From the NCBI GenBank assembly GCA_051362555.1, contig CM120645.1, forward strand, positions 24,580,934 to 24,644,933: 64,000 bases of DNA. The letters are read 5' to 3'. The DNA is from Lingula anatina. Taxonomy: Eukaryota; Animalia; Brachiopoda. The translations under genes were made by a program, and so were the position numbers. Positions 15,399-59,853 of the stretch are shown one piece after another. The stretch's first letter is position 1, and each line of letters opens with the position of its first letter. The notes under the pieces were generated by a model, which did no database searches, was not told the origin of the DNA, and saw only the letters and a program-made list of their open reading frames with translations.

Positions 15399-15430
15399 TG
15401 AATAATCTGCATGGTGGACAGTGTCACAGC

Positions 15431-18400
15431 ATGAGTTTGGAAGTAATTGTTCCGTCTGGGTTGACAGACTTGCTTACGCCGTTCGTAGTGGCTGTCCTGC
15501 GAGATGGACCGGACGATTTGGTGGATTTTGCTGCAAATTACTTCAATGAACTCCGAGAAAAGAGGCAGGGAACGCTACCAGGAATGGGAAGGGGAGTTCG
15601 TTTTGTCCCTGGTTCCGACGATGAAGCCATGCAAACGGACTCTGACGATGAACCAATGCCAGGTGAGAGTGAACGCAAATCTGTTGTCAGCACTCATTTG
15701 TTGTACAAGTGATATAAACCGCAATAAGTCGTTAGGAACACCAGTAATTATATCGCTGTACAAAGGTAATTGGTTCGAAGTTTTGTTGAAAGGTGTATAA
15801 GTCTCCAATTTGACATTTTGCCCCAGGTTACATCGCCCAGCCAACCAAAGGCTGATAACTTACTTGATAAAGAAAAAAATCCCTTCTCTCAGTGAAAACC
15901 AGATTTCAGCACAGGTGGAGGAGAACATGTGGTTCAGTACTTTGTGTAAATATTGTGCCAGTCTTGTAACATCCCACAGAATTTTCTCCTCAAATAATTG
16001 CAAACAGCTCTAGGGTAAACAAGACAGCATCTTCAAATAATTGATGTAATAATGTACTCCCCCATGAATTACTTCTCGCTTTGAACAGTTATAGACTAAC
16101 GAATACTGAATACAATAACACAATATGTGCTTGTTTTTTTCAAAAAAGATTAAGAATATAAGCATGTCATTATAAAAAGGGATGCATAGTGTAATTACTT
16201 TATTCCATCTTCTATTTATAAATAAAAAATAACATAAAGCCTGTCATATAGAAAAGAAAGACCTCATAAACCCTTGAAAGCTCATGATTTCGATTAGCAT
16301 TTCTTTCATTTTGTTTGGATTATATGAAATGCCAGTTCTCTCAATCTTTTAATCTGTCAGTTTTCAGATGTTGATGTTTCATCTTGATCAGCTCAGTTGG
16401 AAGGTCTTGTTCAGTATCAAAATAAAAGAATTGGCATAAAGTTGGTCGAGAAAAGATTAATCGGTATAGAAATGGGATCTTGATATTCTTAAACTGCATC
16501 TTCTAGTTATTGATCATGTTCTAATGGGATTGTTTTCATTTTACTGATTAAGTTGGGAATTTCATGTTTCTAGATTAGCTGTATACAGTTGTATTGAACA
16601 GATGGGCATCCTTGATTGGATTTGAATTGTTATTATCCATGCTATGGGAAGAAGTTCACTTCATACCATTGGATGCAGGAGTCATTTAAACTTGGTGTTT
16701 TGGTAGTATACTGATAGCTGGAATTCATAGTATTTCTAATAATTGTGTCTCTAGTACAGGACGTAAGGAATTCATGTGTGAAAAGAGCCTAGGATTTTGG
16801 CTGTAGGTAATAGAACATCAAATATTGAACAGACCAAATTGAAGATTGGCCTGCTGCTGGTAGAGAATAGATTTTTCTTAAGACACAAGTTAGTTCCTTG
16901 CTTTGTGCTTAGCTATAAAGTTAGCTTAACGTGGACATGACGGAGGTTTGTGATGCGGCAGATGGGTGTGTCAAGCAGCGAGAGAGACGGGGGGCTGTCG
17001 ATTCCGCAGTAGGTAAGATGCTGTACTCTGGACAGAGTCAAATGTCAGCTTTATACATTTCTAAAGCATGGTTGTAAGTACTCTAAATATGAAATATTGA
17101 CTTCTGCAGGCTACCCATGTTCGAATTATATTCCTGATCATTTGTCACAGTATGTTTATCTCAGAAACTGGCATACTGTTTAATTGTTTTTCCTGGTGCC
17201 ATAGCAATGCAGAAAATATACTTTGGGAAATAATTTGAATCACATAGGCAACATTATATGCCTTTCTTTCATGTTTTTTAATTGAGATATACAGACTCGC
17301 ATTTCTATGCTGCCTAAGGCATTAGGTGTCATTAGATTGTATGCCAGCATTTACAACTGTTTAAGGGATATTCCGTCCATTAACACCTGTGATAGTTTCC
17401 CCAGATGTAGACATTTGATCTTGATTACATTTGAGACGTAGGTTTAAAAGAATTGGATGATTTTAGTTGCTATTTTGTTACTATAGGCTAATTATAGGTT
17501 CACCCAAGAGGACACGGGGTGGTATATTAAGGTTAAGTAGCCATAGTGTTCAGATCAATCAACCGTTTCCTGCAGTTTCACTGTCAATAGTTCATCATTT
17601 TCCACCATTTTCATCTTGTCAGTAGAAATTTGTACAGCGTTTAGAAAGATCAATCTTCTCCTTCAATACTCTCTGCTGTGTTGTTTACATATCTGTCTGT
17701 CTTGCCGTATAAATAAACCTGTACTGGTGAGATAAAGCCAATGGTTTGTTTTATAATCAGAGATCACCTGTACATTTTACATCCGTCTAAGTGCAGTTGG
17801 TGTGCCTGGTAGAAATGGATTTTTAAATAAAGCAAGTTCTGACAGCTAAATCCTAACCACCAGAGGTTTAATTAAAGCACATAAAAAGGGACCACTCTTT
17901 TGGACTTACAACAGTACGAGTTTTATGGTTGTGTTCTCGAGATATAAAAATAACACAGCCTATTTCCTACAGGTTTTTGCTTTATTTCTACTCTCTGTAA
18001 AATTCTGTAATATGTCAGCAAAATGTCTATAATCCATTATTTTACAGTTGAAATGTGAATGTGTTGTCTTAACTGAAATCATATATGGTTCCTTAACATT
18101 TTATCTTAGAGTGGTTTCAAATTTAAACAAAACATGTAGTGAAGTTTAAATCCTTTTAGCATTGTAAGATACTAAAGGCATTGAATGATTGTTAATGAAT
18201 TACCAAAAAAAAATGGTTTTTTGAAACCTTAAACTCATCATACTAGCAAATGTATGATTTGTATGATGGACCCAGGATTTAATAATAAATATTGCTGCCC
18301 CAGACCTTTAATTTATATTCTGAAAAATGAAAATGTTGGTGTTTAGTGAGGTGTGAGGTGATGATTATGGCATGTATGTATGCTATACAAAACAACTTTA

Positions 18401-20190: not shown

Positions 20191-20238
<48 letters not shown>

Positions 20239-23200: not shown

Positions 23201-26200
23201 TTCTAGTCAGTTATATTTCAGTACATTACTGGTCAGACTCCCTTCAGTCTCAGTTCTAGTCAGTTATATTTCAGTATATTACTGATCAGACTCCCTTCAG
23301 TCTCAGTTCTAGTCAGTTATATTTCAGTACATTACTGGTCAGACTCCCTTCAGTCTCAGTTCTAGTCAGTTATATTTCAGTACATTACTGGTCAGACTCC
23401 CTTCAGTCTCAGTTCTAGTCAGTTATATTTCAGTACATTACTGGTCAGACTCCCTTCAGTCTCAGTTCTAGTCAGTTATATTTCAGTACATTACTGGTCA
23501 GACTTCCCTTCAGTCTCAGTTCTAGTCAGTTATATTTCAGTACATTACTGGTCAGACTTCCCTTCAGTCTCAGTTCTAGTCAGTTATATTTCAGTACATT
23601 ACTGGTCAGACTTCCCTTCAGTCTCAGTTCTAGTCAGTTATATTTCAGTACATTACTGGTCAGACTCCCTTCAGTCTCAGTTCTAGTCAGTTATATTTCA
23701 GTATATTACTGGTCAGACTTCCCTTCATCAGTATCAGTTCTAGTCCGTTACATTCAGCTTCAGTATCATGTTATCTGGTGGTCAATGTGGGCCAGGTTAG
23801 ATGTGCTGTGTTTATTCTAAAGTAACCTATAACTTATTACTGCAGTATTCAGTCACAGGAGATAAGGGGTCTTTCACTGATAGGAATGTTTGTTTAGATC
23901 CTGAGAAGGGTAGAGGTTGTCCTTATGTAGAGGGAGTGGGAAGGTTTAGAGGAAAGAAGTCAGCTTACCAGTGGTGATTGTAGCTTTAATCTGGTTTAAT
24001 AGAGACAAATACATGTAATAAGACAAATAAGTGGCACTATATCTTAATTTAGCCAGGACATTTCTTCAGAAAATATTTTCCCGTGTTGATATTTTATTGG
24101 AAGTCCATACATTTCAAGATGAAGAGAGATGAGAGTTTTGAGGATGAAGATATTTTCGATGAAGGTATTTTAAGCATATTAAATATACCTTTTGAGCTTT
24201 TTGCATTTTTTTCTTTGATATACCATAGTTTTAAACAGCTTAACTTTAAAGTATATTTCCAATGAAGTAGATATGTTTTAATTCTTGAGTAGACCTTCTG
24301 ACAATAAGATATCAACCCCCTTCCCAGTATCCTTGGGTTGACCTTCTGACAAAAAGATGTCAACCCTTTTCAATATCCTCAAGTTGACCTTCTAAAACAA
24401 GATGTCAACCCCTTCCCAATATCCTCAAGTTGACCTTCTGACAAAAAGATGTCAACCCTTTTCAATATCCTTGAGTTGACCTTCTAAAACAAGATGTCAA
24501 CCCCCTCCCCAATATCCTTAAGTTGACCTTCTAAAACAAGATGTCAACCCCCCCCCCCCCCCAATATCCTTGAGTTGACCTTCTGACAATAAGATGTCAT
24601 CAATCCCCCCACCCTCGTAATATTCATGAGAACAACCCTTCTCCCCAATGGGAAGACCAGGTTAGTTTCATTTTCACATTTGAAACAAGGTATTCTCTCT
24701 TTTCCATAATTTTTTTCTTTCACTAACTTAAATGGTTGCTTTTAGAAACTAAGCAATAGACAAGTTTTACATTGATCTTAAGTGAACCAGTTTAGCAGCT
24801 TATAACATGTGTGCCTGCTCGTGTGCACATGTGTGATTTTTGGCCTCTTTTACTCTTTTCAGATTTTTTTTTCAAATTGTAGCTGGAAATGCAGATGTAG
24901 GAGTTTGATAACATGTCTTCAGTCAATATCACAAAGATGTTGGTAGTAAATTAAGGTCAGAAAGTTAATGTACCTAACAATGGATGCTGTGTTTTATTTA
25001 TGCCCAGAATATCGACTGTTGTAGGAGAAATTCAATATTCTTTGATTTTATGTTTTGTGTCCTCTTACAAGTGTACACGATCATGGTATTTGTGTGCATT
25101 GTGACTCAACTCGAGCTGTTTTAGACTGTGCTATGTTATATTTCTCCAATTTAACTTTGTTTTATTTTCTGAAAAAAAACTTACAAAAGTCAATATTCTC
25201 GTCAATAAATGCAATCTGTAGGTGTCTCTGCCTGTTTTGATTAAAAATACTTTGTTTTTTATCTGATGTTTTATTAATATGAAGGACCTAGGGTGGATAA
25301 TGATAACAGTTGAGATTATTTACAATATATGTGATACATTGATTTGAATGTACTGACTGTACTCTCAGATTTTTACTGGGAAAATGGAATTAGAACATTG
25401 TTAACACTGTTGGACAAAATATTTTTCAGACTTTACGAAAGGCCAAAAAATCTGTCAGACATTCGGTCTGACAAGCTTGAAAATTCTGTCAGACCGAAAC
25501 AAAATCTGTCAGACCGAAGTAAAATAATAGAAATGTGAACCATTATTCATGTTTTCATGTGTATTTTCTAACGTTTTAAATCACTGACATTAATTCAAAT
25601 ATTAAATTTTTGATATATATTTATTTGTAAAAAAGTAAAATAAGAAAGAAAAACAAAAAAAAAAAAAAAAAATAGACAAAAAATTACTTGCATAACAAGT
25701 TGTTTTTTTTATTTAATGAAAAAGACGCTGTGGAATGACACAAGGACTAAAAACAATACAAGTATGAAGAATGTGTAGCTAGTAATATCAAATGTATGTG
25801 CATAAAAACGTCTGTTATTGTTAATCAGATAATGATTTCACACCTTGTTTTTGGCAAAAACATATGCATATTGAAACAGCACAATAAGGCAGTCTCTTTC
25901 ATCCAATTGAAGCTTTTTTCCTCTCCTACAGATCACAAGTCCGCCAGGGCCTACCTTCTTTCCAATTTTACTGTAGTAAACTTCCGTTTCTCTTCCTCAC
26001 TTCGTTTTTATTTTTTGCCACGCTTTGCATCAACGAAGTGTTTAAAGTTCAACAACGTCATTTTCTAAACAAAAGGCTTATCCATGAGTACTGTGTATGA
26101 CTGATAATGAAGAAACAGAGGATCAAGTCTGTAAAACGCAAATAGCACGAGCACATGTGTTGCAGCCATTTTGTCGTGTAGGGGTATTACGAAAACGAAA

Positions 26201-29200
26201 ACGAGACTGTACATTACATCATCCAGGAATCCCCCAACCTCAGCCAGTCACAAAATAGCATTTGTAAGTGAAACTGAGGTTAATAAATTATGTATAATTA
26301 GCTGGGAACTCCCCGAGATTTTCACCCCGTCTCTCTTTTCGAATGTAGTAAAATATATCGTCCAGAAAAGAAACAACAACGTATTCCTTATATTTACACA
26401 TTCCCAGTCAGTTTGAAAACTCGCCGGACATACGGTCCGACGATATAGGATTTTTTATCGGACCGAGACGAAATTTTCCAGGCATGTCCGACGGTCCGAC
26501 GCCTTTCGTAAAGTCTGATTTTTTATATCTGATTTTGTTGTTGTAGTATCTTTTTAATAGTTTAACAAGAGCAAGGAAAATTTATACCTTTTTTTGAGTA
26601 CTTTTATTGCAGTTTTACTAGTGTGGTTGCAAAGGCGTTCAGTGTAATGCATGTAAATTCAGATACTAGTAGCAGTGAAAATAGGTTTATTCTTAGACAG
26701 AGAATAGGTCTGCCAATTTACAATGATAATTATTAATAGTTTTTGAGGCACTTACAAGTCATACAAAAAAAGGAAAGGAATATATGCAGTTCAGTTTTGT
26801 CGTTTTAGAAATTTTAAGGTTATACTGTGAGTAAATTAGATAAGTAAACTGTGACTCAGTCTTAGTTTTTTATTCCAAGGTAAAGAAGAACAAATGATTA
26901 AATGATAATTATATGTGTAAGTGATTTGGTTTTGTAAAAGGTGCAAGGTTTTTAACATCGAGGCACTGGCAATACCCCCAAGGTTGGCACCATTCCCTCA
27001 CTTAACATTATCGGCCAAACTGTTGACATTAGTCCTGTTTATGGTCTGTTGTGGTGGAGTTTTGAACTTCCAACTCCATGTATTGCTATGGTAGCTGGGC
27101 TTCTCAAAGTAAGCAAAGATAATAGAAATGTAAAGGTGCTGACTTGGGGGAGGAAAGGGGGGGAGGGGGCCTTGAACCAGTAGGGATCAACATTTTATTA
27201 GACACATATTTAATAGTAAGTGTTATAGTCTTATAGTAAAAATATCAGGAATTGTAATCTGTGGTCACAATTAATTAGTTACGAACCACAGAATAGACAG
27301 GAAGATGCAGGTATGGCTAACCAGGTGTATAAGTTTATTATTGCTATCCATATCCAAGGCAATATAATGGTGAAGTGCCATGAACTATGGATGAACATAA
27401 TGTGTCAGCAGTTGCCAGTCAGGTATGGTAGTGAGATTTAAGTGGGGTTCCAGGTGTTATTACTGGGAAATAGTGGCGCGGTGAAGTATGCTTCTTGGAG
27501 TTATTCTGAGCAGTGAGAAAAAGATGCATTTAATTGAAATCCTGGCTGGTGTAAGACAACTGATTTCTTCCCAACATCTTATTGGTTGGCTGTTAAGTCT
27601 CTGCAGGCATGGTATGCTAGGGAGTTGTTTATAGGAATTTCTTTACCTTCAGGTGGAGCAAAAGTGCAGAGAGAGGGAATGAGGGGTGTTTTTCTTTTTG
27701 TGGCTTTACGTTATTTTGCTTCCACTTTATGGCTGTAGACCCCTGCAGCCACTGGTGACATTATCATTGTGTTCAGTAGTGTGTGCCTGCAGCTGTGGGA
27801 CTGTAGGCTGGATAAACTGCAGTTCCTGGACTACTCACTTCAGTACTGGTGGGTGTGGTGATCAGCTTACCTCAGTGTGGATACCCCTCTCCCTTCACTG
27901 GCTGGCCTCACTTCAGTACTGGTGGCTGTGGTGATCAACTTACCTCAGTGTGGACACCCCTCTCCCTTCACTGGGTGGCCTCACTTCAGTACTGGTGGGT
28001 GTGGTGATCAGCTTACCTCAGTGTGGACACCCCTCTCCCTTCACTGGCTGGCACATGGGGAGTGGATTCCTGACTGGAAGTGAAAGCAAGTGGTGAATAC
28101 CTATCACTACAGTCTAGTGCAGAAGCTGTAAGAAAACCTGTGATCTGAGCTGGTTTGTAGACAGCATCTGAAGAGAACTGATCACCTGGTTGGAAAGGTG
28201 TTTTCACAGCAGTTGTCTTTGATTGGGCTGAGCTGCTGTAAACTTGTGTTTGTCATAGGGAGAGGAGCCACTGCTGCTGCTGCACTGGTATTGAGCTACA
28301 GTTTGTGTCAAGGAACAGATTGAGAGCCTTGTTTTCTGGATATGCAGTGAATTTTCATCCTTGCTGCAAGGTCTGACATCTATTTTGTACAAATTTGATT
28401 TGGAATTGGCATAATTAGTGAAGGGCAGAGAGCTAAAGCCTTGTAGATTCATATCTAATGTGTTACTGTAAAACTGCAATTTGACCAAAGGAATATGTTT
28501 TATATTTTGAGTGCTCTGCAGTGATTTCTCAGCTGTGCGCTATTTGTGTAACAGTAGACGTCTACCTATCCAAGTCGTGATTAGATGGAATTCAAGTCAG
28601 GTTTCAAAGTACTTAATGATGGCAAGGTAATAATTTCAAATTAAATCTGAAGCAGTCAATCTTATTTATGCATGGCCATTCTTTTCAAGGAAGGAGAATC
28701 TGGCCCTGAAATCCTTGAACTCCATAGCAGGAAGAAGAAAGATTTGATAGACAGCTGATTGCAAATCTTTAATAACACTTACTGGAAATGACAGTAGTTT
28801 TTTCTGGTCAACAGAGTGGCTGACTCCTTATTCTGCTGTCTCTGAACACAAGATACAGGGAATATTTATAACAAAAATAGACTACATACAGTATAGGGTT
28901 CATCATCTCTTAGCCTGTTCCACAGGGTCACAACAGAAGACTGGAGAGACGGAGAGCAAGAAATCATTGGTTATATTCTATTAGCTTAAGACCTCTAAGT
29001 GACAAGAAAAGATAGCCTGCTTCCTTATCTGTACAGTTCTGGACAGTTAATACTAACTGAGAAAGGCAAATTTATTTTATACAACATGGGTTCAATTTTC
29101 ACTAAGTTAACTGCCTGGCGAAGGTCAGAACCCATTACTTCTCCTCCTAGTGTGGGAGAGGCACCTGCCACTGCAGAGGGAAAAGATCAAGGTAAAAAGG

Positions 29201-32200: not shown

Positions 32201-35200
32201 GACAGTCTAGCAGCGTATTAGACTGGGTTCCCATCCCTAGATCGATCTAACAGGATCAGTCCATCTCCATGAGGTTCCTCGCTAAATTGCTTTCAGTTTA
32301 AGTGGCTTAGATGTCTGGCACGCCTGCTAAAGCTGTTAAACAATAAATAATTACACCCTATCGGCTTCAGTAGGCGTGACAGACATCTAAGCCGCTTAAG
32401 TTAATAGCAGTTAAGCGAGATAGTTTGATCCAAAGTTAGTACGATAGCGTCTGGGAATGGTCTATTATTTTCAGTGTAGTATGCCCACTGTGTCCTGCAT
32501 GGATTGTTACAACTCCTTGCAGTCATGACTGAATGTAGGCCTTTCAAGTCTTGGCAGATTGTTGCCCATCTACTAGAGTTGATCCTAAAGCCTTTTGTGT
32601 CTCTTGTTATTCATGCACTGACCTAGACTTAAAGGCACCATATGATATATAGTATTATAACAAGATTTATCTGAATGATGAAGCCACAAGCCTAGAGATG
32701 TTTTAGTTACCATTTGATATAGTATAACCAGACTAATATAAATATTTCAGCCACAGGAAGGTCTTGATAAGTATCTTATAGTAGCCATTTCATATGTAGT
32801 ATAACCAAACTATTCTAAATATTTCAGCCACATTAAGACCTAGAGAAGTGGTCTTGATTTGAAAACTTGGGCCAGTCAAACCTGGTATCAGATATTGTAT
32901 AGATCTACATTTTGTCCTCCTATATCATTGGAGTTATGTATCCGTGGAAATATGATTGTGAATTGCGGGTAAAATTTGTTGAAAATCTACCAAATTGAAT
33001 GATACTTGCTTATCTTATCAGCTTAGTGGTTTAATGGTATGATAAAATCTAATCTGATTTTTGCTGAGATCATCAGTATTATTCTGATTGTATCTCACCC
33101 AGTGTCCTGTAAGGCAGTCATTTCTGATGTGATAAAATCTCATCCAAGTCTTTTCTAACACAATGGGTTGGGTTATCTCACCCAGTGTCCTGTAAGGCAG
33201 TCATTTCTGATGTGACAAAATCTCATCCAAGTCTTCTCTAACACAATGGGCTGGGTTATCTCACCCAGTGTCCTGTAAGGCAGTCATTTCTGATGTGATA
33301 AAATCTCATCCAAGTCTTCTCTAACACAATGGGTTGGGTTAGCTCACCCAGTGTCCTGTAAGGCAGTCATTTCTGATGTGATAAAATCTCATCCAAGTCT
33401 TCTCTAACACAATGGGCTGGGTTATCTCACCCAGTGTCCTGTAAGGCAGTCATTTCTGATGTGATAAAATCTCATCCAAGTCTTCTCTAACACAATGGGT
33501 TGGGTTAGCTCACCCAGTGTTCTGTAAGGCAGTCATTTCTGATGTGATAAAATCACACCCAAGTCTTCTCTAACACAATGGATTGTGTTCTATGTTGGTT
33601 GTTAGTATGGCTGCTGTGAAGTGCCCTGTGTGAACCATGTATTCATGTAGAAGGTCATAGATGTAGTGAGACAAGTTGATAAGTGATTGACCAAACAAGG
33701 AGCATGCCATTTCCCTACTCGTGGCTCAGACCAAACAAGGAGCATGCCATTTCCCTACTCGTGGCTCAGACCGTACAGGTGCTTCTTTATTCCCTCCTCC
33801 ATGATCTACCTCTCTGTACCTGGAATCCTTTCTTTTTTACTGTTGGTCTGTTTGTGATTTGTGTCTGACAGATTTCCGTCTATTTTTCTCTCTTATGTAA
33901 GCAGCTTTCTATCAGGATTGTAAGTACTCTCATGACCAAGTTAGCTGTAAGGTCAATGCAATTAAAAGTACACCTTAGTTAGAAATGAGTCCATAATACT
34001 TAATTATTAGAAATTGATGGTCATTTTGCTGTTAAACATTATGTAATATTGCATCAAAATTGAAAGGACCCTATTTTGAGCACTGCTTTCATAATGACCA
34101 TTTAAGGAAAACCATGTTACTTATGATCAATCTTACTGAAAAGATTCATAGGACTGAAATGCAGCTTGAGTTGGAAAAACCAGTCTCATTGCTTTCTCTT
34201 CTGGAAGCAGTGCAGTTCTTTATGAAATTTTCAATTTTCATATACTGGCATATTTTATATGGGACTAAGAACTCCCACAGGCATGAAGCCAAATGGTAAT
34301 CAAATTTTCTAAATGTCCATGTTTATAGTAGATACTTAAAAATTGTGGTAATTATACCATTAATCATTATGTAATATTTCGTCAAAATTTAAAAAAAAAA
34401 AAACTTTGTGCAATGCCACCACAAACATTGTGAAAAGAAAACTGTATTCCTTTTTATTTTGTCACTTATAAGAATGGTTCATATAATTGACATACAGCTC
34501 AAATTGCAATACAAGCTTGATTGGATTATAATTTTTTAAAAAATTTATGCAGTTTTTTTTTCTCATTCTGGCATTTTCAAAGTGTGAACTTGAACTCTCA
34601 TGGGCCTGAGGCCTTGTGCTAGTTACACATTTTACTCATATCCATATTACCTGTTGTGCATATTTAATTTGGTGGTGACTTTGCAGTTACGCATAATGTA
34701 TTATTACATCAGAATTGACAGTTGCCTATTCATTATTTTCTGCTTTTTGTCAGTACATTTGACAGCTCTGCTGCCTTATTTATTTAATGGAGTGACCTGC
34801 ATGTATTAATTTTTTTTATCAAAATTAAGATAGTGTCTGCTATTGAAATAAGTTCATCATTTATTAAATGCAGTTGTGAACTGCAGCATGTAGTGTAAAT
34901 GTAGTTATTGATGTAACCAGAGTGACTTGCTTATCAGGCTTCCTGGTGTTCAAACACTTAACTGCCTCCGTGGCTGTTTGTACTTCATAAAAGATTAAAA
35001 GAATAGCCTGTTATCTGAGGCTTAACTAGGCTGGGCTGGCTGCCCCTAACACAGTTAAGAGCATGCGGTGAAAATGGCTTTGCTGATTACAGACTGCTCT
35101 ATTAGTTTGACTTTAAGTAATCAAAAGGCCAGACAAACTTAATATTTTGGTTAAATTTTGAGGAAGCTAGAATATTTTTTCAGTTGAAAAAATATTAGGT

Positions 35201-38200
35201 ATTGGTTTGGTAAGTGGAAGATCCCAAGGAAAAATCTTAGAGCTGGTTGATGTTATTGTTTTTGAGCTGTAAATTAGCCCACACTGTAGATTTGAGTTTT
35301 TCCTTAGGTTCAATTGAAAGAAAAACTGACCCATCCTAAGACTGAGCTGCTATCCCTGTGTATACACAGTCGTCACTCGTTTATCAACTGATCAATTTTG
35401 ACTGGCTTAATTAATAATCAGTCTGGTGATTTTCTTTAGCCGCTTGGCTTAAAAGGTTTTGTGAATAAATACTTATATGAGAGTTACAATGAGTACATAA
35501 AATAAGATAAAAAAAAAGTTAATTTAAAAGATAAAAACGTTGATTTTATGTTCTTTAAAAATCAGAAAATATTTTGATATTGGTTAATATCATAGCATTT
35601 TTTTCCTGTCTTGAATTGATTTAATCTCACATTTAGATGAAGTTGTGACCAAATAGTGCAGGAGGCCATGTGTAGTTTTAGCTCATGTGCTCAGTTTAGG
35701 AAGCAGGGGCCTTTCAGCCACTATATCATCCTGAGTACAGGTGTCAGGCATTGGGGAGGTGGGCCAAAGGAGGAAAGATGGTGGGGGTACTTGAATTAGA
35801 GGAATTGTACAGTCATCTTTTGTAGTTTCCCTAGTAATAAACCATGCCTAGTTACCATGGGCATTTACTGGTGAAACCAGCTTGCCAGATTATAATTATA
35901 TTAAGAAAGGTCTAGCAGGTGTTCCCCCCACCCCCCTTGAAGGCCTCTGGTCAATGTTGGTGTGATCACAGTGTTAAGGTATCAAACCAGTTTTAAAAGC
36001 CACTGGTTTACGAACAGGTTGTTCTTCCATCATTATATTACCAGGAGCTATCCATGCCTGCTGATGGCTTGTGATCTATCATGAAGACAGCCCTGGAAGT
36101 CATTAGTATTGAGTAGTGATTGTCATGTGTATAATGTGACATACACAGGCAGAGAAACAGGTCTCTGTGCGCGCTAAGCCTGATTATCTTTCTAGAAATA
36201 ATCCAGAGATATCTTAAACAACCAGGTGGACAGATGTTGTAAATGTCTGAGACAAGATGGGAATATCTTGCTCTAGCATGGTGCAGCCACATGACCGGGA
36301 GTCTCCAAGGAATGGAGAAGTCAGCAAAGATAATACCCTCCCAGTTGAACAACAGCAGGATAGCAGAGAGTTCTCTAATAGTCCTAACTTACCACCAGGT
36401 AGTAGATATAGATGTAAGAGTTCTCTAGTAGTCATAACTTACCACCAGGTAGTAGATATAGATGTAAGAGTTCTCTAGTAGTCATAACTTACCACCAGGT
36501 AGTAGATAAAGATGTAAGAGTTCTCTAGTAGTCCTAACTTACCACCAGGTAGTAGATATAGATTGTGGTCACTTACTAGTAATGGTAGATTATGGATAAA
36601 GACAGTTTTGACTTATCTAAATTGTGTTAATAGTTTAAAGATGTAATATTAACCGTGTTCATGATAATTCAGGTGCTTTTGAAGTTGCAGATATTGGTTT
36701 CTTATGGATGTGGTTGATTTGTTTAAGAGTGTTTTAAAAGCATTTCGCCAAGTTTCATACCAGAGCTTCAGTTGAAAGTTGGTATTTATCTGAAGACAAA
36801 ATTTTTGTTATGTAATGGTTTTATCTTTAGTAGTCCACTAAGGTAAAGTTATTATTAATTTCAGACAAAAAAAACTTTTTATCTTTATCTATAAAATATG
36901 TCCAATAATGTCACTTAATTGGACTACAACACACTTATCTCGGGTTAAAGTAAACTGAATTTTTGTGTCAAAAAAATTACAACCATTATTCAACTTATGT
37001 TCTTTTTTGAAACTGTGACTCTCACTCAAGTTTTTTTTTTTTTTTTTTTTAACAAAAAAGGGAGAGGTGATTGTTGTTTGCTTTTGTCACTTTAAAGTCT
37101 GTTCAGTGAAACTTTTTAACAAATGCAATATGGAGGAAAGTATAAGATTGCATTCATTATATTAATTGGATCATGAAGTTGGTGTCTCATAACAGTGTCT
37201 TGAAAGAAAGATTGTGTAAGAAATTAGGAACTCAAGCTGAAATACATTTTCCATTGTATGGCTTGTTATAAAAAATGTGTTTCTGTGAGGCGTTTTAAAG
37301 CAGAAATTTGATGTATGGATTTTCACAGGTACAGTTGATGTGGATGTTTTGTGTGGGTTGGGAATTAATCAAATACATTTGGACTTGAGGAGATTTCATG
37401 GTGGTGGGTATCTTAAGTGTTATTCAGTTGCTGCAGATAAATAGTAATTCTGTGTAGAAATCAAACTGATGGTGTGAACATGGTTTGTGATCAGCTGTAG
37501 GGTTGTTTTTGATTGAGATTTAATTAAATAGGAGTGTGTGCCACAATAAGTCTCACACCATAACATGTTCTACATTGCCTGAGGTCAGCCCTCAGTCTGA
37601 AGGTTGTGTGCACTTGGCTATAATACCTTTAACCTGTGATGCCAGGCCAGTTCACCAGAAACCTCTCTCTCTTCTTCCCCCCCCCCCCCCCCCCCCCCCC
37701 CCCCAAGAATACTCACATAATATTTTATTAAACTAGTTTTGTTAGAGTAGCATCCCTGGCAATTCACAAGTATTATTTATTTATGGTACTACTTTTTGTC
37801 TTGAAGGATGTTATCTAGAAATCTTATTTGAGAAAAATATGTTATCTAGAAATCTTATTTGAGAAAAATGTGAGACTGTAATAATAATAATAATAATAAC
37901 AACAACAGCAACAGTAAATACTACTACTACTAATAATAAATAATAATAATAACAACAGTAAATAAAAATAATAAGAACAATAACAACAACAGAAAAAAAT
38001 AATAACTGTGAATAATAAAAATAGTGATGATGATGATGATGATAAAAGTGGGCCAGGATAAGATACTAAGTGAAAAGGGAAATAGAAAATGTTTTATGTC
38101 TCTGGAAGAGATCATCTTTACAATATTTTTTGCTGACATTACGTAGGGACCTTCATCCATAAATAAATAACAGTGTAAAATATATTGTTTATTTTGATAA

Positions 38201-41200
38201 AGATGGTAATCAGAGAGAGAATGTGACAGTTCATGATACTTTTCCGCCACTAGCCAGCTGATTGTCTTTGGTAAAATTAATAATAAAGGAGTAGGAATTT
38301 TTGTGAATGAATATGGAGCTTAATTTACTTGAAATATTGTTTAAAAGAACATTTAACCATTATTTATATCTTTAGTTGATAATGCTTTGTTTCTTCAGTT
38401 TCTAATAATTTGTTATCTGCTCTCTTTCAGAGCCTCCTATGAAGAACAGATACCAAAGAAGGAAATCGGGTAAGTCCACCTGTATTGGCAGTATGGAGAT
38501 ATAATACTTGTAAATCAAGTCAGGTAAGTCCAATGTGGAATATCTAACACTGTGATGTACAGGGGTTCACCATGTCTTGTATATCCTCACATTTGGCTTT
38601 CTCACCAGTAGTTAACAGAGACTAGCTTTGCAAGAATTTTATTTATATTCTATTTATCTGTATCTTTATTCAATTTGAGATTGTGTATTCAGCTATGGTC
38701 AAACAAAACTGATTTCATGTGCTATATGCTTGAGCATCAGTGTCTGTAAAAGGTTATGTGAATAAAGAGGTTTGCAGAAATCTGCCATGATACCTGCCCC
38801 CTCCCCCCCTCCTCTCCTATATGCTTCTCATTCTACCCTGTGGGGTTGTGCCAGGGTTAGACCTGTATTAATTCTCTTACTGTATCTAACATCCTGTGGG
38901 ATATGCTTCTACCCCCAGAATTTTTAAGATTCAACTGGGACAGCAAACTCGGTATTCCTGTGGTTTGTTTCCATCTTCAGTATTTGCAGCTGAATATTTA
39001 CCAAACAAACACCTTCCTTGTTTCCTTGAATTTTAACTATATTTTCTGAGATTCTAACCAGATGGTTTAAAGGCGAAAAAGTAATGTCTAATTCATATGA
39101 GACTATAACAGGTGTGCTGAGCAATTAGTCAGATTTAAGATACTAGTAACTGTTTCATCAGAATTCCTCCTGCCTGAGATATACCAGGAAGTAGTATAAG
39201 AATTTGCACCTTGCACATGTCTAGACTGTGGAGTTGGCTGACTATCACCACTGATATCTTGGCTAGGCCGCAGACACCCAGTGCTTGGAGATAAACTTTG
39301 CTGATAACATACTTTGGTTCCTTATACATTAATGCTGGTTATATTTGTCATCTTTATGAAGATATGAAGGAAAGAACAAAATGGGTTTTATAGAGTTGGT
39401 AATGGATAATAGTGAACTAATTGATAAATGAATGGTCTTATTGGGTGGATTTGAAGAAGAGACCAAAAACTAATAATGAGAAACACCTAGTTATGGTTGG
39501 GTATTATTTGTTCATTCTAAGAGCGCATTCTCAACGAATTAAGCCAGGCTTTACAAAGCCGGTGACCTAAAAATGGCGGACGTACATGAAAGAAAAACCG
39601 CCTAATCTTTTAATAGTCTCTCCGCCTCCCCACACGTCGTCCCTGCGGGGTACAGTAATTAAATCTCGGCTCCGTTCGCCATGCGGAAGCTACCTGAGAA
39701 ATATTAAGTGCGCATGCTCATCAGTTAAACTCGTGGTGAAGAAGGCATAGCGGCTGAAGGCGATCCAAAAAAAAAAGCTCTTCTGTTCTATTATCTTTGA
39801 AAACAGAGACGAAAAAGGAATAATTTGGCCCGTAGAGCAGCAATGAATCGACTATCTAAGGAGATAATATCACCAGAGATATTCACGGAAATATTAATGT
39901 TCGGAGCCGAGATTTAATTACTGTACCCCGCAGGGACGACGTGTGGGGAGGCGTGTGAGAGGCGGAGAGACTATTAAAAGATTAGGCGGTTTTTCTTTCA
40001 TGTACGTCCGCCATTTTTAGGTCACCGGCTTTGTAAAGCCTGGCTTAATTCGTTGAGAATGCGCTCAAAGTTTGTAGATTGTCCAATTAAGCTAAACTCT
40101 AGGTTGCACCTATCTGAACATGATTCACTTATCTGTGATGTCCTCACATTATATATATAAATATTATATGCTGTACAATATATATATATATATATTCTAG
40201 AAAACAGTGCTTGGACACTTTTTTGATAGGGTGATGTGATTTTTTATGTCTGATGTTTGTTTTTCTACCTTTGTTATTTTAACATTTTATCAAGGTGTAT
40301 ACTGAAATGGTGGTTTGAAATAACTGTTATCATAATGTTTTAATTCCCATGTCAGCTATAATCTGGTGAGAGGTGACCAGTTCAGGAGACAGCAGACTTC
40401 AGACGTGGGGTTTGCTCCCCTGCTTGTCTGTGTCAAGACAAGCCCTCTACTACTAGAGCCACCTGGTGGACAGAAGCTCCAGAGTGTGCTCTTGCAGTTT
40501 ACTCTATTATATTATAACCATAGCCTTAAAGCTTTTGCCAGTTTCTTGGTGCATGCGTGTAGTATAGTTATGACTGACACTTTTCAATGGAGAAATATTA
40601 TCAGTCTTTCAGCTACATGTAGTAATTAGTCATTAATGGTTTAGATGTTACCACCAGATATCAGCTATCTGAATTTTCTGCTCCATTGACTTTTATCACT
40701 ATTTTTTAATTTGATATGCCTGCATTTACATTTGTTCTGTTCTGTGACATTTCTTGTAGTAAATGTTGAATATATAATAATGGATTAAATCATGGTAAAA
40801 ACCTCTTTATATTGAAATATTAATTTCATTTTTTCATGATCCAGTCATAATCGTTGAGATAATTGTGTATTAATAAGATATGTGCCCAAAAAAGCCATGC
40901 ATAAATATCCTATAATTTCTGTGAAATTTCTGTGCTAAATAAAGAGAATACATACATTACTAGTATATATATATATATATATAATCTTTGGAAGAGACAT
41001 TTGAAAATGGATTGTAGAAAAAAGCCAGAAAAAAAAAATATGGTAATTTTAATCATTGATGCTATAGTGTCTTTTGCTGATATCTGTTCACCATGGTTAA
41101 AATAATTATATGTCTGTTTGTTGTTTGTCAGCTAGGGCAGTGCGCTATGTGAGCAGCCAGTACTTCCTGACAGTTTTATTATCAAATTACAAATATTGCA

Positions 41201-44200
41201 GGTAATAACCTCCAAACAAGGAAGCTAATGAGGTCTTTAAGTTAAAGGTCACATGACAGTCATGTGACATCAATAGGATAGGTTAGTCCTGCTCAGCTGG
41301 CTGTATAATGCACATGGTTTACATGCCTGGCAAGAACTTAGGTCATATTTCTTCATTATGTATGCATGTGATATGCTGTAGTATGTTTCCAGTCCCTGCA
41401 AGGCTAGTCCATCACAACCTTATTAATAACATGCCAGCTCCTTGATCACAGATAAGAATACCAAATAGGTGTTGATTACACTGAATTGCTGGGTGGCAAA
41501 ATTCATTTTTACATGGTGAAAGGTGTCATAGGACATGTTGTTATACATATTTTAAGTGTTAAGTTCCTTTGTATATTAAGTCTTTGTGATATTTTATGGT
41601 GGATGCGGGTGTGTTTGGTAATGTAGGGTATTTGTGGAAGAAAGGCATCATAAGGTGGATTAGTAGAAATGCTATAATACCTACGTTTTATCATTTTACT
41701 GAGTGTGCTATATAAATGCTGCTTTATATGTGATTAAACAGCAGTGACTAGAGTGCCTGCAGGAAGTCTTGAAGTCAGCCTTGTAATAAACACTGTTGTG
41801 ATGGTTTGATGACAAGTAATATATAGTATTCTATCAGTTCTGTATGTGTGAAGTGTCTTCTCTATGATACTCTTCATTTGATGGCAGATGGGGCTTGCTG
41901 ATAAACGTGACAAAATGACCAGTTTTATTGATTCCAGCTCATTTTATTATCCAGTGCACAGGGCCAATACTGCCGTGGTTATAGTGCCCTGAAGCTGGAT
42001 ACATCAGTTTCTTCACCACATGATAGATTCTAATATTAACACACAACTTAAGATATCTTAGCAGATAAACAAAAAGTGCAGGAGCATTTTATCAGCTTAC
42101 ATATCTTAATGATTTGAAAATAATATATCCAATTCATTTTCTATATAATATATATATGAATTTTGAACTTCATATCATCCCACATAGACTCCATTAGGAT
42201 TCTGTGCCATGATGACCCTGTGTGAGTGGAGCACAGTTTGGGTAGATTTTATGTTGAAAACATTGAATTTGAGGGCTGCAACCTTCAAAAAAGCAAGAAT
42301 ACGTAGCCATGAAGATATGTAACTCCTATGCATGTTTATAATCTTTGACAAACTACCAAGTTCCTCTTGTCTTGGATGCACTATCTTTTGACCTAGGCTT
42401 GGAATAACCAATCAGATACTTGTATACGACATCCAGGAAATTCAAAAGTAATGATGCTGCAGTGTTGCTTTGAAGTGGACTTTGATTGATAAAGGATATC
42501 AAGAACATATTTATGTCAGCTATTCAGAAAAGATCAGAGGGTTTGATGATGATGAGATCCCAGCATAGTTAATGCTGTAGAAAAGATAAACTTGTACCAG
42601 TCTATAACTGATACATTAGAAAGGACAACAGATGTCATCTGGCCCAGGCTCTACAGTCCAGGTTATATTGTAGCAATCTGACAAACCTAAATTGGTCTAG
42701 ATTACTGAGCCTATAAGGTCCTTTTTACATAAAGTGGGATACTTCAGGGATACACCTGAACCATGGCACTTTGAATGATTGACAACTTAGAGTTGCCAAG
42801 CTTTGGCCCCATTCAGAACAGCAGACTAACTAGTCCACAGGTCAGATATGGCTGACCCACCTTAATACTTCCCCATGGAGAATCAGTTCAGTGTCTGTTA
42901 GCAGATTAGGCTGTATGTGTTTTAGTCCATCACCATATTTGGCTGCAAACTAGTTGGTCCACTGTTTTGAATGCAGCCAATGGCATAGGAGTCTCCTGAA
43001 TGTAGGCTCTGCACTCAACATGGACAACTCTTAAATTAATGTCAGGAAAGCTGTTTTAAACCCATGCACCATAATCATATGTGAGGATGTCCCGGAGAGA
43101 ACCTGGACAGCTGGATCACTCAGCTCGTACAGGCAAAAGGGCTAGGTCTAAGGGACCATTCAGAATGAGAAGAGCCAAGTGCTAGCTAGGCCGCGACCTA
43201 AATATGGCAGACCTACATGAAAGGAAGACTGCTTATTCCTGTAATGGTCTCTCAACTTCTCACATGCCTCCCCATGCGTCTTCCCTGCAGGGACACAGTA
43301 ATTAAATCTCGGCTCAATTCAACTGTTCAAGGGACTATACGTGGAGAGGTGTGGAATAGGCAGAGAGAACATTACAGGATTAAGCGGTCTTCCTTTCATG
43401 TAGGTCCGCCATATTTAGGTCGTGGCCTAGCTAGCACTCGGCTTTTCTCATTCTGAATGGTCCCTAAGAGCATTCTTGAAATAGGCAATACTTCATAGCC
43501 TATAATACTTTTGATTATCTGGTAACCTAAAACTGACTTCACATTTCTTTAGTTACAAATTAAGTGAGCATTTTATTTAGATTATTTTTTAAAAATAAAT
43601 ACTGGTGTGAAATTTGGTCAGTCTTTTAATACGTTCATGCTGTTCTTTCATTATCATGTCAAGGGACATCTTTAAAAGTCTACATGGTATTTCTGAAACT
43701 TACAAGTCTTATTAAACTTGGCTTTATGTTGTATGAATCCCATTTCAGTTTGCAGGAAGCTTGTAGTTCAGAAAAAAAAAATGATAACTAGACACAGTCA
43801 AAATTTTAAACATATTTTATAGAACAAATTGTAATACAATATTTCAAGACCTTGGTATGTTCTTAATAATAATAATATTCAGAAACCATATAAAGTTTTC
43901 AGATGGTCCCGTATGAATATGAATATTTTGCTATTGTGAGTATTGCATGTGAATAGCATTAACATCACTGTAAGATCACTGCCTGGGTTGATGTGGTTGA
44001 ATAAAACAGATGATTACTTCCATGATTTTTCCTACACAAATTTTTAACAGCATGGGAAATAAACATCTTTATAGTTAATATAGTGATTCATGTGTTTCTT
44101 TGTTAAGATAAGTCAGTTAGGTTAAACTTAATTATAATTACAGTTAGGAGACGGTGGGACCACATTGAATGTGGTGTTTTGTCTGTTTGTTGGACTGGGA

Positions 44201-47200
44201 AAGGAGCTGATAAACTGTTGTTTAAACTTTGCATTTCTCATTACCAGTGAATGACTAAGGTTGCACTATCAGAACAGGACTGCCTCTGCTGCTTGGGTGC
44301 CTTCCTTCATTAATATATAGATCCAATAATCCCAAGTTTTGTTTACCAGACTGCATGGAAACTTACCATATATCCCCAAGCCAGACTGGGCATCATATAG
44401 ACAGTGTAGTTCATTATTGCCACTTCATATGATCCAAGCTTCTCTCTCAGTATCAATGTAATTAAGATCTACAGGAAATCAAGAAATAGGCATAAGGTTT
44501 CTGAGTAACTTGAGGGTCAGTTTGTAGAGACAGTAAAAGGATCACAGGAACACAGCCCACTCACAGGGTAGTAGAGGGAGGATCACAGGAATACAGCCCA
44601 CTCACAGGGTAGTAGAGGGAGGATCACAGGAATACAGCCCACTCACAGGGTAGTAGAGGGAGGATCACAGGAATACAGCCCACTCACAGGGTAGTAGAGG
44701 GAGGATCACAGGAATACAGCCCACTCACAGGGTAGTAGAGGGAGGATCACAGGAATACAGCCCACTCAAAGGGTAGTAGAGGGAGGATCACAGGAATACA
44801 GGTCACTCACAGGGTAGTAGAGAGAGGATCACAGGAATACAGCCCACTCACAGGGTAGTAGAGGGAGGATCACAGGAATACAGCCCACTCACAGGGTAGT
44901 AGAAGGAGGATCACAGGAATACAGCCCACTCACAGGGTAGTAGAGGGAGGATCACAGGAATACAGCCCACTCACAGGGTAGTAGAGGGAGGATCACAGGA
45001 ATACAGCCCACTCACAGGGTAGTAGAGGGAGGATCACAGGAATACAGCCCATTCACAGGGTAGTAGAGGGAGGATCACAGGAATACAGGTCACTCACAGG
45101 GTAGTAGAGGGAGGATCACAGGAATACAGCCCACTCACAGGGTAGTAGAGGGAGGATCACAGGAATACAGCCCACTCACAGGGTAGTAGAGGGAGGATCA
45201 CAGGAATACAGGTCACTCACATGGTAGTAGAGAGAGGATCACAGGAATACAGCCCACTCACAGGGTAGTAGAGGGAGGATCACAGGAATACAGCCCACTC
45301 ACAGGATAGTAGAGAGGATCACAGGAATACAGCCCACTCACAGGGTAGTAGAGGGAGGATCACAGGAATACAGTCCACTCACAGGGTAGTAGAGGGAGGA
45401 TCATAGGAATACAGCCCACTCACAGGGTAGTAGAGGGAGGATCACAGGAATACAGCCCACTCACAGGGTAGTAGAGGGATATCGTTAATTTTCTATCAAT
45501 ATCTTTGCTGGGGATTCCCAGTGGGTTGAAGATCTATATGTACAAAGCTTGCCACCAGAACCTGCCTTGAATAGTTGGAAAATAATATGACAGCAGGAGA
45601 CATGTTAAGAAAAAGAGAAAAAACCTAATCCTTTTGTCATGACTGGTGTATATGTCTTTGTAGAGGAGTGATGTTGACAGACAGTGATTTCACTGGTAGC
45701 CAGGTTTGTTGAGTTTATATTTCCAATGAGGTTAGACAACTGGCAATATAACATTTGGCAGGAATCAGTGGGGATTGAAAACTGGCCTTTCATAACTGGA
45801 AGCTGTGATTTGATTTGGTATATCTTGCAGAGCTTGACATTATGTTGTAGATGTCTCCACGTTATCAGGGTGCAAAATAAAGATGAGACCAGATATTATG
45901 TTAGAACCATCAGCAGCAGCTTGTAAACCAAATAAATCAACATTTTGAGGAAGGAGGAAAAATTTGAAAAATAATTACTCTTCTCCTCTTGGGGATTATT
46001 ATCGCCATAGTTTTCGCAGCACTGGTGGCTTACTCCTGGCAGAGACTACAAGTGGAGTGTACATAATACTGTGGAGGAGCCAATCAACTGAAGTAATAGG
46101 TGATATATGGGGAATATTGCCTCCATTGATTGACTGGAGAATAGTGTTGTCTGTAAGGATTGCTGCTACAGTACAGATGTCCCAGAGGCTGGGATAAAGA
46201 GTGGCTTGGTTTTGTGTTTTTGACTGGCAACCATGAGATAAGGCATAGACTTCAGGCTTTGGTTTAGACAGCACACAGGCTAGCTCACCAGTACTGTTAA
46301 GACAGCTAATCTTCTAGGTGTCAGTCTAGACCAGTGGACTTACATCTGATATGTACAGACTGGAAGTGTGGTTAAGTTGACCAATATCTGGAAAAAACTG
46401 TTAAGATAGAACCACGACTTATGTGAATGACTTGGTGAAGATGGAACCACGTGCACGCACAGCTTATTTGAATGACTTAGAAAGGTTCGAATCACATGCA
46501 TGCACAGGTTATTTAATGACATGGTGAGGATTGAACCACAGTTTATTTCAATGACTTTTTAAGGATAGATAGCCACAGCTCATTTCATGACTTGGTGATG
46601 AACTTGCTGCACCCAGCCTTCATGTCTGCAGGGATGTCACCCACCTTCTGTGGAGAAATTGAGATTAAGCCAGCAGGTCTTCATGTGAACAAGAGGTTAT
46701 TAAGTGACATTCCCAGTTCTGATTTGTACAACAATTAAATTAAGCTAATACAGTCTGTGTTTTCTATACTATTTGGACTAGAGCTCATTACTGCTTTTCC
46801 TGTTGCTGACAATATATATTTATGAGCAGTTACTCTCACTTCTACATGGAACTGGCATTATAGATACATTTGTCCCCATAGTCTTCAACCTCAGGCTTCT
46901 AATATTGATATAGATTTTGCTGCTGTGTAGGTATTTGAATATGAAAGACCAGTATTTTGGATTACTTTACAACTTGGATGCTGGCGTGTGTTGTTTATAC
47001 ATATATGCATATCTACATACATGCCATTTTCATCAGCCAACTGCCAGTTTGGATGTTTGTCAAACCACAATCTAGGTACAGGTTGTTTAAGCTCTAAAAT
47101 GGCTGTTCTCTTCGCAAACGTACTGTGCACACATGAGGTTTGTTCTTATAGGGTGAGAAATCAATTTTAGCTGACAATAACTGAAGATTCCTCACAATTG

Positions 47201-50200
47201 GTGTGAAATGAACCAGACGGTGGCCAATGATTCTGGATGTTGAATGAAGTGTAACTTACAACATTAAGGAAGTAATTAGGGGGATGGACTGCTGTTTTAA
47301 TTAAAGTGCATCTGACATCTCTTCCTAAACCCCTGGCAGTGCTAATTTGCTAGTGAAGAAGCCACTTAGTTGGATGACTTGACTTCCCCCAGGGACAGTG
47401 AGAGCTGTGCTCTAGTCCAGGAGTAGAAGGACATACTGAATGCATGGGAATAGAGAACCAAGGGATTGGCACAAATATTTATTACAAGTTTGAGTTAATT
47501 TCCAAATCAAGAGGAAGCCTCATTTCTTATGGATTTTGGTGAATGTCCAATGAAGAATCTTCATAGGAAAAGTATAAACAGAGTTACTTAGGTCCAGCTG
47601 CTTTGGTAACAAAAAATTGCCAATACCAGAATAAAAACTTGGCCGACAGTTCATGGAATAAGAAATCGTGAAATATATCAAGAAAATATGAGGACAAAGA
47701 TTGGAAGAGCATATCTCAAAGATTACATTTGATTTGTCTACACACTGTGAATAAGTGTACCTATGTTCACTGACATATTGTTCAGTAGTGCACCTCCTAT
47801 AACATATTGCTTCCCAGAAGAAATCACTTCAGTGTAATTAGTCAGTCAAGCCACCCTCTCAGTAATGGCAGAGTCCCCAGCAGGCTCTCCTGTACCTCCT
47901 AAGAGACCATTACGGAGGAGATCAGCAGGTAATGGCAGGTTTCTCTTGCACTGGGGGAGGGGAGGGGGGGGGGGAGTTCTGGCATTCAAAGAGAGAATGA
48001 TTTCTAATATGATAATATATTAATGGTGGAAACTGATAACAATACCATGCTGGCCTCTGTGATATATATATATATATATAATGTGGTTACTTTGAGCTCC
48101 ATGGACGTATGCCAGTCATTGTAAGTGCTACAAATGTTTTTACACTTGGCATTTTTAAACAACCAGGTGTTTGTTCATAATTTACTGCCACACTTGTTAA
48201 TTACCCTGTCACCATTTTTTTCAATACCTCCAGTGTATTTACCTGTAGGTGGACCAGAGCTGACAGAAACAAGAGAAAGGACAATGTATCAGGGTACCCT
48301 GATATGATATCTAAATACATGGTGTAGCACCTGTCTCAGTTATTACAAAGTTAAAACAGTTTACTAAATAAAACCTGTGTCAGATCAAGAAGTCAAGGTG
48401 TTTACCCTGTTTTACCAATTATATTATTGATTCATAATAGGCATGTAAAGTTAATTTGTCTGAAAACTCTAGCTAATAAGTTGAACTGGAAATTGGTTTA
48501 CCCCACATATTATACATGTTTGGAAATTGATCTGCTCTGACATTGTTTTTTATTGACTGTGGTCTCTAAACTACTGTAAACATACTTAAATGCTGGCACG
48601 TCTATTAATTAGACCTAAGTTATGCTATTAGATATACCCTGTAGTGCAGAAAAACGTCTTATATTAGATACTGTGCTAGAGTAATGGTTTTATTTGGTAT
48701 GGATCTAAGTTTTTCTTTCAGAAGTGTAATTTTTTTTGTCCCATCTTTTTTATTCAGGTTTTAACACTAAACGAAACAGGTAGTAAGATTATTTTGCACA
48801 TATTTTTCATGTTTAAACCAGCTTGTACTTGAACAGTAGACTGTGACTTTTCTTAATTCTAATTAGTGTTCTTTGTTCTCTTTCCAGTATCAGCAGAGAG
48901 GTATGACCCAGAGGCAGATGAAGATGAAGGGGACCAAAGGGTAAGACACTGTCCTCACACAATCAGAATCATTCTTAGACCAGTATAGGTGGCAAAAGAG
49001 GGAAAGATTTCTGTAGTTCTTGCTAAAAGTAGATATCTGAAGTCAGAAGTTTAGTCTATATTTTATGTTTATGTTATCTAAATACACGCCATGTGAAAGG
49101 TTTATGTAGACCACTGCTTTTTTCTCTGTTGCTACACTAGTACTATAGCTTACTGGCATAGATTACCAGGTGGTTTTATTTTATCCTTCACTCCTTATCA
49201 AACTACCTGCAATAGGATAATGATTACAGCCAGTGCAGTGCTGTCATTACTCGCTGCTGAAAAAAATACTGGCCTATGCAATACGATATGGGGAACATTA
49301 ACAGAAAAAAAATATAATGAAAAAATGAAAAAAAAATAGCTAAAGGAGAATCATACTTAAATATCTCATTTTGGATCTTTTTGCTTCAAAATCAATAGAT
49401 GTTGACTTAAGCATCCTATACTTAGGTTACGGGAAATAATTAGGTTGAGATATTTAGACTACTATAGCTCATGATCAACTGATTCTTTTCTTTAAGATAT
49501 AAGTCCAAAGAAAAAGAAATGTATACATTACATTGGTCAATAGTTGGTTTGGCTATTTAGGATACGGTAAACATTTTCCTTCAAATGATAAAATAAAAAT
49601 TAGGCACACAGTTGTTTTTAGAGTCGGGGGACAGTCTTAGAGGAATATGAACCAAGGAAAAACATTTGAGGCCTATGATGAAATGTATTATTGATTTGTA
49701 GCTTGAACACTGACTGTTATGTCTAAATACATCCCAGATTCCATAAAATATCTCTTAGGTAGTTGCCATGGATGATTTTAACCAAATTTAAATTTTGGGC
49801 TAAGTCATTGATATAATTAGCTAGAAAAAAATTGTAAGTATTCCCTTTACCAAGTTTGAGTATGTTGAAACATTTGGCTATAATGGGTTAAATACAGTCT
49901 GCTAGAGTGAAGCCAGACATTTGTATTGACTGTGCAGTGGGTTTAGTCAGATAATGCTGTCTTAGCTCTGGTAATAGTTCAGTATTTCCTCCAAAGCTGC
50001 TTGAACATGATTATTTTTGGAACTGGATAACTTCAGGTCATGACCATCTCCACAGGTCCAGAGTGGAAACTAGATAACATCTGGAAAAAGATTTTTTTTT
50101 TCAGTTTCATAGTATGATCAAGCGATCAACTTTGTCGTATTGCAGTCAAATTCTCTGACTAATCATGACATTGTAAATCAAATATTTTTATTTCTAAACT

Positions 50201-59799: not shown

Positions 59800-59853
<54 letters not shown>

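Follow-up and report, generated by a model that had tools for sequence, protein, structure and literature searches.

The 64-kb window analysed here (the whole stretch of Lingula anatina DNA, 64,000 nucleotides) contains a gene for the type II regulatory subunit (RII) of protein kinase A (PKA). It is an ordinary RII gene in which up to five alternative first exons precede a common body. At least three of these exons are real, as they correspond to RefSeq models, and probably four are. We consider it rather probable that they replace the docking and dimerisation (D/D) domain and give rise to subunits predicted to be monomeric and independent of A-kinase anchoring proteins (AKAPs), one of which has Ala at the inhibitor site and one of which has a second, upstream pseudosubstrate. 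Alternative first exons as such are a known arrangement; the Ala site of isoform X3 and the conserved second pseudosubstrate are what sets this gene apart.

Three of the leaders belong to public gene models. The exon at 29086..29191 encodes a 35-residue Gly2 leader (MGxxxT-K) and that at 36257..36398 a 47-residue Gly2/Cys5/Ser6 leader, while the exon at 47865..47928 has its own hinge, ends in RRRSA and replaces the exon that ends in RRKS (all exons described here are on the + strand). Their joined products differ from RefSeq isoforms X2 (XP_023932346.1), X1 (XP_023932345.1) and X3 (XP_023932347.1) at 0 of 341, 1 of 353 and 0 of 314 residues, respectively, which supports the alternative N-termini proposed in the preliminary description of this DNA; the RefSeq models carry no functional comment. 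As isoform X1 mismatches at one residue, this DNA and the RefSeq models probably stem from different haplotypes or assemblies. The Gly2 features are G2, T6 and K7 in the 29086 leader, which has no Cys, and G2, C5 and S6 in the 36257 leader; a Ser or Thr at position 6 is part of the Gly2 acylation consensus.

The third of these exons alters the sequence of the inhibitor site itself. As had been proposed, splicing 47928>48888 bypasses the exon with RRKS, so that the P-site becomes Ala, and this is exactly what RefSeq X3 contains. RRSA and RRKS are equally distant from SAERY, RRSA-V lies in the register of RRKS-V, and in the PDB alignment RRSA is aligned to the RII-beta site. The exon reconstructs a full hinge, i.e. 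PP, five residues and RRxA at the correct register, and donors 38469 and 47928 are the only ones among 137 forward candidates that end in RRx[AGS]. The former is the donor of the true hinge exon (38431..38469, 39 nt), which ends in RRKS, the phosphorylatable RII inhibitor site, and is present in RefSeq X1 and X2; every form that uses it reads RRKS-V. In the X3 form the Ser of the canonical register is absent, Ala stands in its place, and a Ser is found one residue earlier. Judged from these sequences, 47865 is the only one of the five leaders that swaps inhibitor chemistry, so the earlier suggestion that the leaders do this as a group holds for 47865 and fails for the other four. Exon 47863-47928 begins like exon 48888 and closes like the hinge exon, which gives it the look of a mimic or duplicate of the inhibitor segment.

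It is quite unlikely that exon 47863-47928 doubles as an internal cassette of 66 nt. Placed after the hinge exon, such a cassette would give RRKS-V followed by RRSA-V 22 residues on; a D/D exon spliced to it would instead encode an AKAP-anchored dimer that carries a pseudosubstrate. A CAG two bases before the ATG gives an exon of this length with matching phases; it begins with TA as exon 48888 does, so that the Val at P+1 is regained, and neither join interrupts the reading frame. The acceptor, however, scores -8.2 (51st percentile of intronic AGs), while 11 of 12 true acceptors score 1.4-8.5. Moreover, RefSeq X3 begins at the 47865 Met, and no such insert was seen in any protein examined.

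Exon 16937..17012 is the probable fourth alternative first exon. Its 25-residue leader contains a pseudosubstrate-like RRGAV, and the last 10 residues match the leader of RII isoform X3 of Lineus longissimus with a score of 24 (ungapped, junction-anchored). This is the top score of 90 candidate donor peptides (shuffle p=0.00029), and a null of 399 control peptides reached a maximum of 8 against Lineus X3 and of 17 against the best of 12 foreign leaders. The motif common to the two species is RRxA-V/I-D, positioned 9 residues before the hinge junction in both, and the spacing from RRGAV to the downstream RRKS is 18 residues in Lingula as compared to 17 in Lineus. Within the window, RRx[AG] followed by a hydrophobic residue occurs in 1 of 137 forward candidates, namely 16937, and in 0 of 214 reverse ones.

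The exon is also transcribed. RNA reads were examined in four of the nine runs found by species label (runs X1, X3, X6 and X9 for 15200-17250), and the mapped regions, 15200-17250 and 33800-44500, cover leaders 16937 and 36257. In run X3, of which ~6% was read, ~843 read bases (~6 reads) on the sense strand form an isolated island at 16856-17131, preceded by a stretch from 15615-15682 up to 16856 that has no reads; the transcribed 5' part starts at ~16856-16924. The island carries three fixed differences in its 5' untranslated part, and none is listed in the open reading frame (ORF). Transcription of exon 16937 is thus observed in one sample, and splicing at its donor is a candidate event. The preliminary description had regarded the RRGAV leader as the source of a form like the type I subunit (RI). 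Because RRKS is retained 18 residues downstream of RRGAV, the sequence describes a two-site subunit instead.

The canonical form is better covered. The D/D (RIIa) coding exon at 15431..15662 (Pfam PF02197, E=3.2e-10, 39.9 bits vs a cut-off of 22.4) is connected to hinge exon 38431 by 26 junction reads (7+10+9) in three of the four runs, read from loose ends at 15662 that match the start of exon 38431. An upstream non-coding exon also splices to the D/D exon (joint 15283>15397, 4 reads in 2 runs; intron ~15284-15397). The RefSeq cluster has three members and none of them is the D/D, 16937 or 24119 form. Since the D/D form is missing from it despite these junction reads, we infer that RefSeq was built on an older scaffold without the upstream exons; the absence of 16937 and 24119 therefore weighs little, as does RefSeq silence on any exon upstream of 29086. 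Read depth over the hinge exon is low in all four runs. Reads of opposite orientation cover 15200-15400 (to ~15680 in run X3) at depth 4-7 in the stranded runs X1 and X3, which suggests a divergent or antisense transcript at the D/D promoter. In run X3 these antisense reads coincide with low D/D sense coverage and with the use of exon 16937.

A number of observations speak against the reading given above, and they begin with the RNA data. No spliced reads for alternative first exons were found in 15200-17250 or 33800-44500 in the four runs, the read set of the latter region being dominated by repeat-derived reads in which junctions at 38431 are unreadable. Intronic interspersed repeats at 33990-34790 and 39580-39980 draw hundreds of RNA reads from other transcripts. 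In run X3 the 17012>38431 junction is absent; of the 21 reads none is clipped, and one or more continue beyond the 17012 donor. Exon 16937 has no reads in runs X1, X6 and X9, and exon 36257 has zero read depth in all four runs. RefSeq X1-X3, for their part, are predicted automatic models whose read support is not visible. The likeness between 16937 and Lineus X3 is confined to 9-10 residues, and without anchoring BLASTP finds 5/9 identities at E=0.52, which is not significant. Finally, RRRSA of isoform X3 contains R-R-R-S, itself a PKA consensus, shifted by one residue from the canonical register.

Besides the D/D exon, the preliminary description had listed five ATG-initiated leader ORFs, each with a purine at -3 and a phase-1 G/GT donor; these features, as well as the starts and ends given, were verified for all six ORFs (the base at -3 is A in the D/D exon). 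Joined to the downstream exons by coordinates, they give open frames in six of six cases (D/D 383, 16937 331, 24119 321, 29086 341, 36257 353 and 47865 314 residues). The combination of -3 purine and phase-1 G/GT is, however, found at 25 distinct donors on the + strand vs 16 on the reverse strand. By a generic donor score, the five leader donors rank 3, 6, 12, 23 and 27 of 337, and the top four reverse-strand donors (5.4-5.8) outscore all five (best 4.9). MGxxx[S/T] is not enriched either, with 2 distinct forward starts vs 3 reverse ones, and the Gly2 leaders show no sequence conservation, their scores against foreign leaders being 2-3 at best. By itself, the pattern of ATG and phase-1 donor is therefore not beyond chance in comparison to the reverse-strand control, and evidence from outside the pattern has to decide. 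Donor strength, Kozak purine and Gly2 motif were dropped as support, since they do not separate the five exons from chance. Peptide motifs exceed chance in part: the RRxA type is selective and the Gly2 motif is not.

Exon 24119..24164, with a 15-residue acidic leader and an open frame when joined, is a candidate first exon. Its junction-anchored comparison with the 12 foreign leaders gave no match (best score 3), and the proposal that it encodes an acidic linker mimic finds no homology support; in composition only, it resembles the leaders of Lineus X4 and Tubulanus X2, which are acidic as well. Two other donors were tried against the foreign leaders and rejected, 23909 (score 17, donor rank 40 of 337) and 26130 (score 13-14, donor rank 154 of 337), both being within the range of the best-of-12 null and having poor donors. 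The products that would result from reading through exons 15431 and 16937 were looked up as exact sequences, with no match.

Taken to the extreme, such results could mean that 16937 and 24119 are ORFs that arose by chance in introns, or else unspliced noise from promoters, and that the RefSeq variants are rare and yield no protein. Donors no stronger than those of the reverse strand, a 17012 donor that is read through without a junction read, the zero depth of 36257 and the bare record of 24119 all fit this explanation. We nevertheless consider it very improbable in view of the Lineus X3 match of the 16937 leader, the isolated sense island at 16937 where D/D coverage is low, the conservation of a D/D-less RII-beta leader in four frogs, and the fact that the RefSeq cluster also omits the read-supported D/D form.

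In related RII genes, isoforms without the D/D domain recur. Of the first 10 other RII clusters inspected, 6 contain D/D-less isoforms, and frogs are among them. Lineus has five annotated, Tubulanus two and Biomphalaria three, and others are annotated in Babylonia, Ixodes, Argopecten, Xenopus and three other frogs; the Mytilus, Mizuhopecten and Dreissena clusters have D/D forms only, among the members listed. In the gastropods Biomphalaria and Babylonia the D/D-less leaders are Cys-rich or Gly-Cys. Four frogs (P0099, P0351, P0352 and P0356) have a short D/D-less RII-beta leader that starts with MT(A/S)K, a conserved vertebrate case. A further set of RII-like proteins without D/D domain (P0055, P0111, P0116 and P0181-P0186) has Gly2/Cys or Cys-rich starts and GRKSV in place of RRKSV.

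The inhibitor site of isoform X3 has few parallels. Among 180 proteins with an RII-type segment (149 rows of the representative library were counted apart) the P-site is Ser in 177, absent in 2 and Ala in 1, the latter being Lingula X3. Among the same proteins, an extra upstream RRxA site was found in Lineus X3 only. Against a wider occurrence of the Lingula arrangement it must be said that an exon-swapped Ala site in a second RII isoform was not found among these 180 proteins, and that region searches with the Lineus X3 and Lingula X3 leaders returned, among cluster representatives, their own clusters only. Ala sites do occur elsewhere in RII-like proteins (L001, L002, P0278, P0318 and P0348), where RRxAV is followed by an RII-type AE-x-Y/F-D/N-P segment. 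In this they resemble X3, but they are distant from the Lingula protein and show no sign of being splice forms of Ser-site genes. Three of them (L001 601-638, L002 152-189 and P0278, with RRQAV or RRTAV sites) form a well-supported clade in a tree of 38 rows that has no metazoan RI row and in which most deep forks, including those that place the Ala-site proteins in RII, are unsupported. The L001 and L002 loci have no D/D domain within the available stretch. When metagenome contigs were scanned with a degenerate pattern, an Ala or Gly site before an RII-type segment, 4 loci emerged, 2 of them RII-like; the two GC-rich metagenome loci were discarded, as translation found no motif in the frame of a regulatory subunit. 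P0235, an Ala-site protein that clusters with vertebrate RII, was left out of consideration because it may be an engineered construct. As far as these sequences go, the Ser-to-Ala change is not unique to Lingula, while its exon-choice route is seen here only.

These comparisons bear on a second explanation, according to which the alternative exons are real and the leaders are mostly passive, fast-turnover promoter exons whose sole effect is the loss of the D/D domain; RRxA motifs and Gly2 would then alter neither inhibitor chemistry nor targeting. Leader sequences indeed differ across species, even between two nemerteans, and some are only 3-8 residues long. Of the four Lingula leaders that join the hinge, only one matches a foreign leader. 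The X3 site retains a Ser in R-R-R-S context, and an X3-type swap was seen in no other species examined. Yet we regard passive leaders as somewhat unlikely, since the brachiopod and the nemertean have RRxA-V/I-D equally far from the junction, and since 47865 rebuilds a whole hinge in register, an ending shared by just 2 of 137 candidates, the other one being the true hinge.

Under the reading that we prefer, in which the leaders replace the D/D domain and some of them act on inhibition, each leader would remove dimerisation together with AKAP binding, and separate, tissue-restricted promoters would choose between them. The Gly2 leaders of 29086 and 36257 could anchor an R1C1 heterodimer to membranes via myristoylation, with or without palmitoylation of Cys5, by analogy to Toxoplasma PKAr1, in which acylation at G2/C5/C7 stands in for the docking domain (PMC6152992). 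PKAr1 and the 36257 leader both have G2 and a nearby Cys in the place of the docking domain. PKAr1, however, is the normal product of its gene and was tested by mutation, while the Lingula leader is an alternative exon known from sequence, and 29086 has no Cys. One published result counts against a simple outcome: RI-alpha has a second dimer interface beyond the D/D domain (PMC8144671), and because of this interface we use the term monomeric in a conditional sense only.

The 47865 form would be a natural Ser-to-Ala RII that recaptures the catalytic subunit (C) fast, regardless of calcineurin activity. According to PMC8560092, dephosphorylated RII captures C ~50-fold faster, and the S98A variant of RII keeps PKA activity low irrespective of calcineurin. 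RII-alpha S98A resembles X3 in that an RII body has Ala where the phosphate acceptor would be, but S98A was made by engineering and retains its D/D domain, whereas X3 is natural and D/D-less, and its P-1 Ser is possibly phosphorylated out of register. The X3 pseudosubstrate can also be likened to the RRGA/RRGG inhibitor sites of type I subunits. The 16937 form keeps the phosphorylatable RRKS, and RRGAV might serve as a back-up site in the catalytic cleft once RRKS has been phosphorylated. Going one step further, we tentatively speculate, as a possibility that falls short of being probable, that a single animal RII gene sets both the location of PKA and the phosphorylatability of its brake by promoter choice: isoform X3 would escape the cycle of autophosphorylation and calcineurin, and the RRxA-V/I-D of the two-site form, conserved between brachiopod and nemertean, would keep C inhibited, or bind a second C, after phosphorylation of RRKS.

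The novelty of the set as a whole was put too high in the preliminary description, as D/D-less regulatory subunit isoforms are in print and three of the five leaders are public gene models. The D/D domain is missing from some kin-2 isoforms of C. elegans (PMC9692727) and from RI and RII forms expressed in decapods (PMC12608923), so in these animals, as in Lingula, one regulatory subunit gene gives products with and without D/D domain. They differ in that kin-2 is RI-like and the decapod RII site is RRxS throughout, while the Lingula RII body would gain RRxA by exon choice. The same source, a 2025 survey of 1122 regulatory subunit sequences, describes the RII site as completely conserved as RRxS, and the portion of its supplement that was searched has no match for Lingula, Lineus or either motif (PMC12608923). 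No literature report was found of RII inhibitor-site choice by exon, or of the Lingula gene, in a search that mostly excluded subscription journals. What may be new, on the present sequences, is the choice between substrate and pseudosubstrate at the exon level within one RII gene. There are reportedly older papers on N-terminal variants of Drosophila and Aplysia regulatory subunits.

Whether a regulatory subunit has a pseudosubstrate (RI) or a phosphorylatable site (RII) is regarded as a fixed property of its gene. If one RII gene indeed selects RRxS, RRxA or both through its first exon, this rule would be broken, and such natural variants would allow the purpose of RII autophosphorylation to be tested. 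The D/D-less RII leaders of nemerteans, gastropods, a scallop, ticks and frogs suggest a wide occurrence of RII pools that do not depend on AKAPs and have received little study, although the surprise is limited as D/D-less isoforms are known in general.

The assignment of the gene to RII follows from its RIIa D/D domain, its RII-like cAMP core and its RRxS inhibitor site. In a comparison with PDB the core is closest to solved RII-beta and RII-alpha chains (E ~1e-118, vs ~1e-69 for RI chains), and PF00027 matches it twice, i.e. it has two cyclic nucleotide-binding domains. The 47865/X3 and 16937 forms have this RII core and no D/D domain; they may function as RI does at the inhibitor site, yet they are not RI members. 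Twelve downstream exons were mapped from 38431 to 62880, every one flanked by AG/GT. Eleven of them, within 48888-62880, are shared, reproduce the RefSeq core and encode the P+1 Val, the linker and the two cAMP-binding domains: 48888-48940, 50860-50943, 51249-51290, 56699-56763, 57612-57753, 59525-59626, 60341-60415, 61016-61075, 61493-61550, 62119-62187 and 62750-62880. The 47 residues of cAMP-binding domain encoded by 57613-57753 are 100% identical to RII isoform X2 (XP_023932346.1).

Two tandem arrays start inside exon ends and repeat the splice donor, one in the 36257 leader exon (36367-36563, ~4 copies) and one in an exon of the cAMP-binding domain (56745-57017, ~10 copies); the 36398 donor sits in the first unit of the former, a 50-bp array. 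Directly upstream of the RII gene are exons of a Bap31/Bap29 gene (5271-9081, + strand, PF05529 E=5.7e-18). Human BCAP29 is located near PRKAR2B, which would make the adjacency of Bap31/Bap29 and RII an old synteny.

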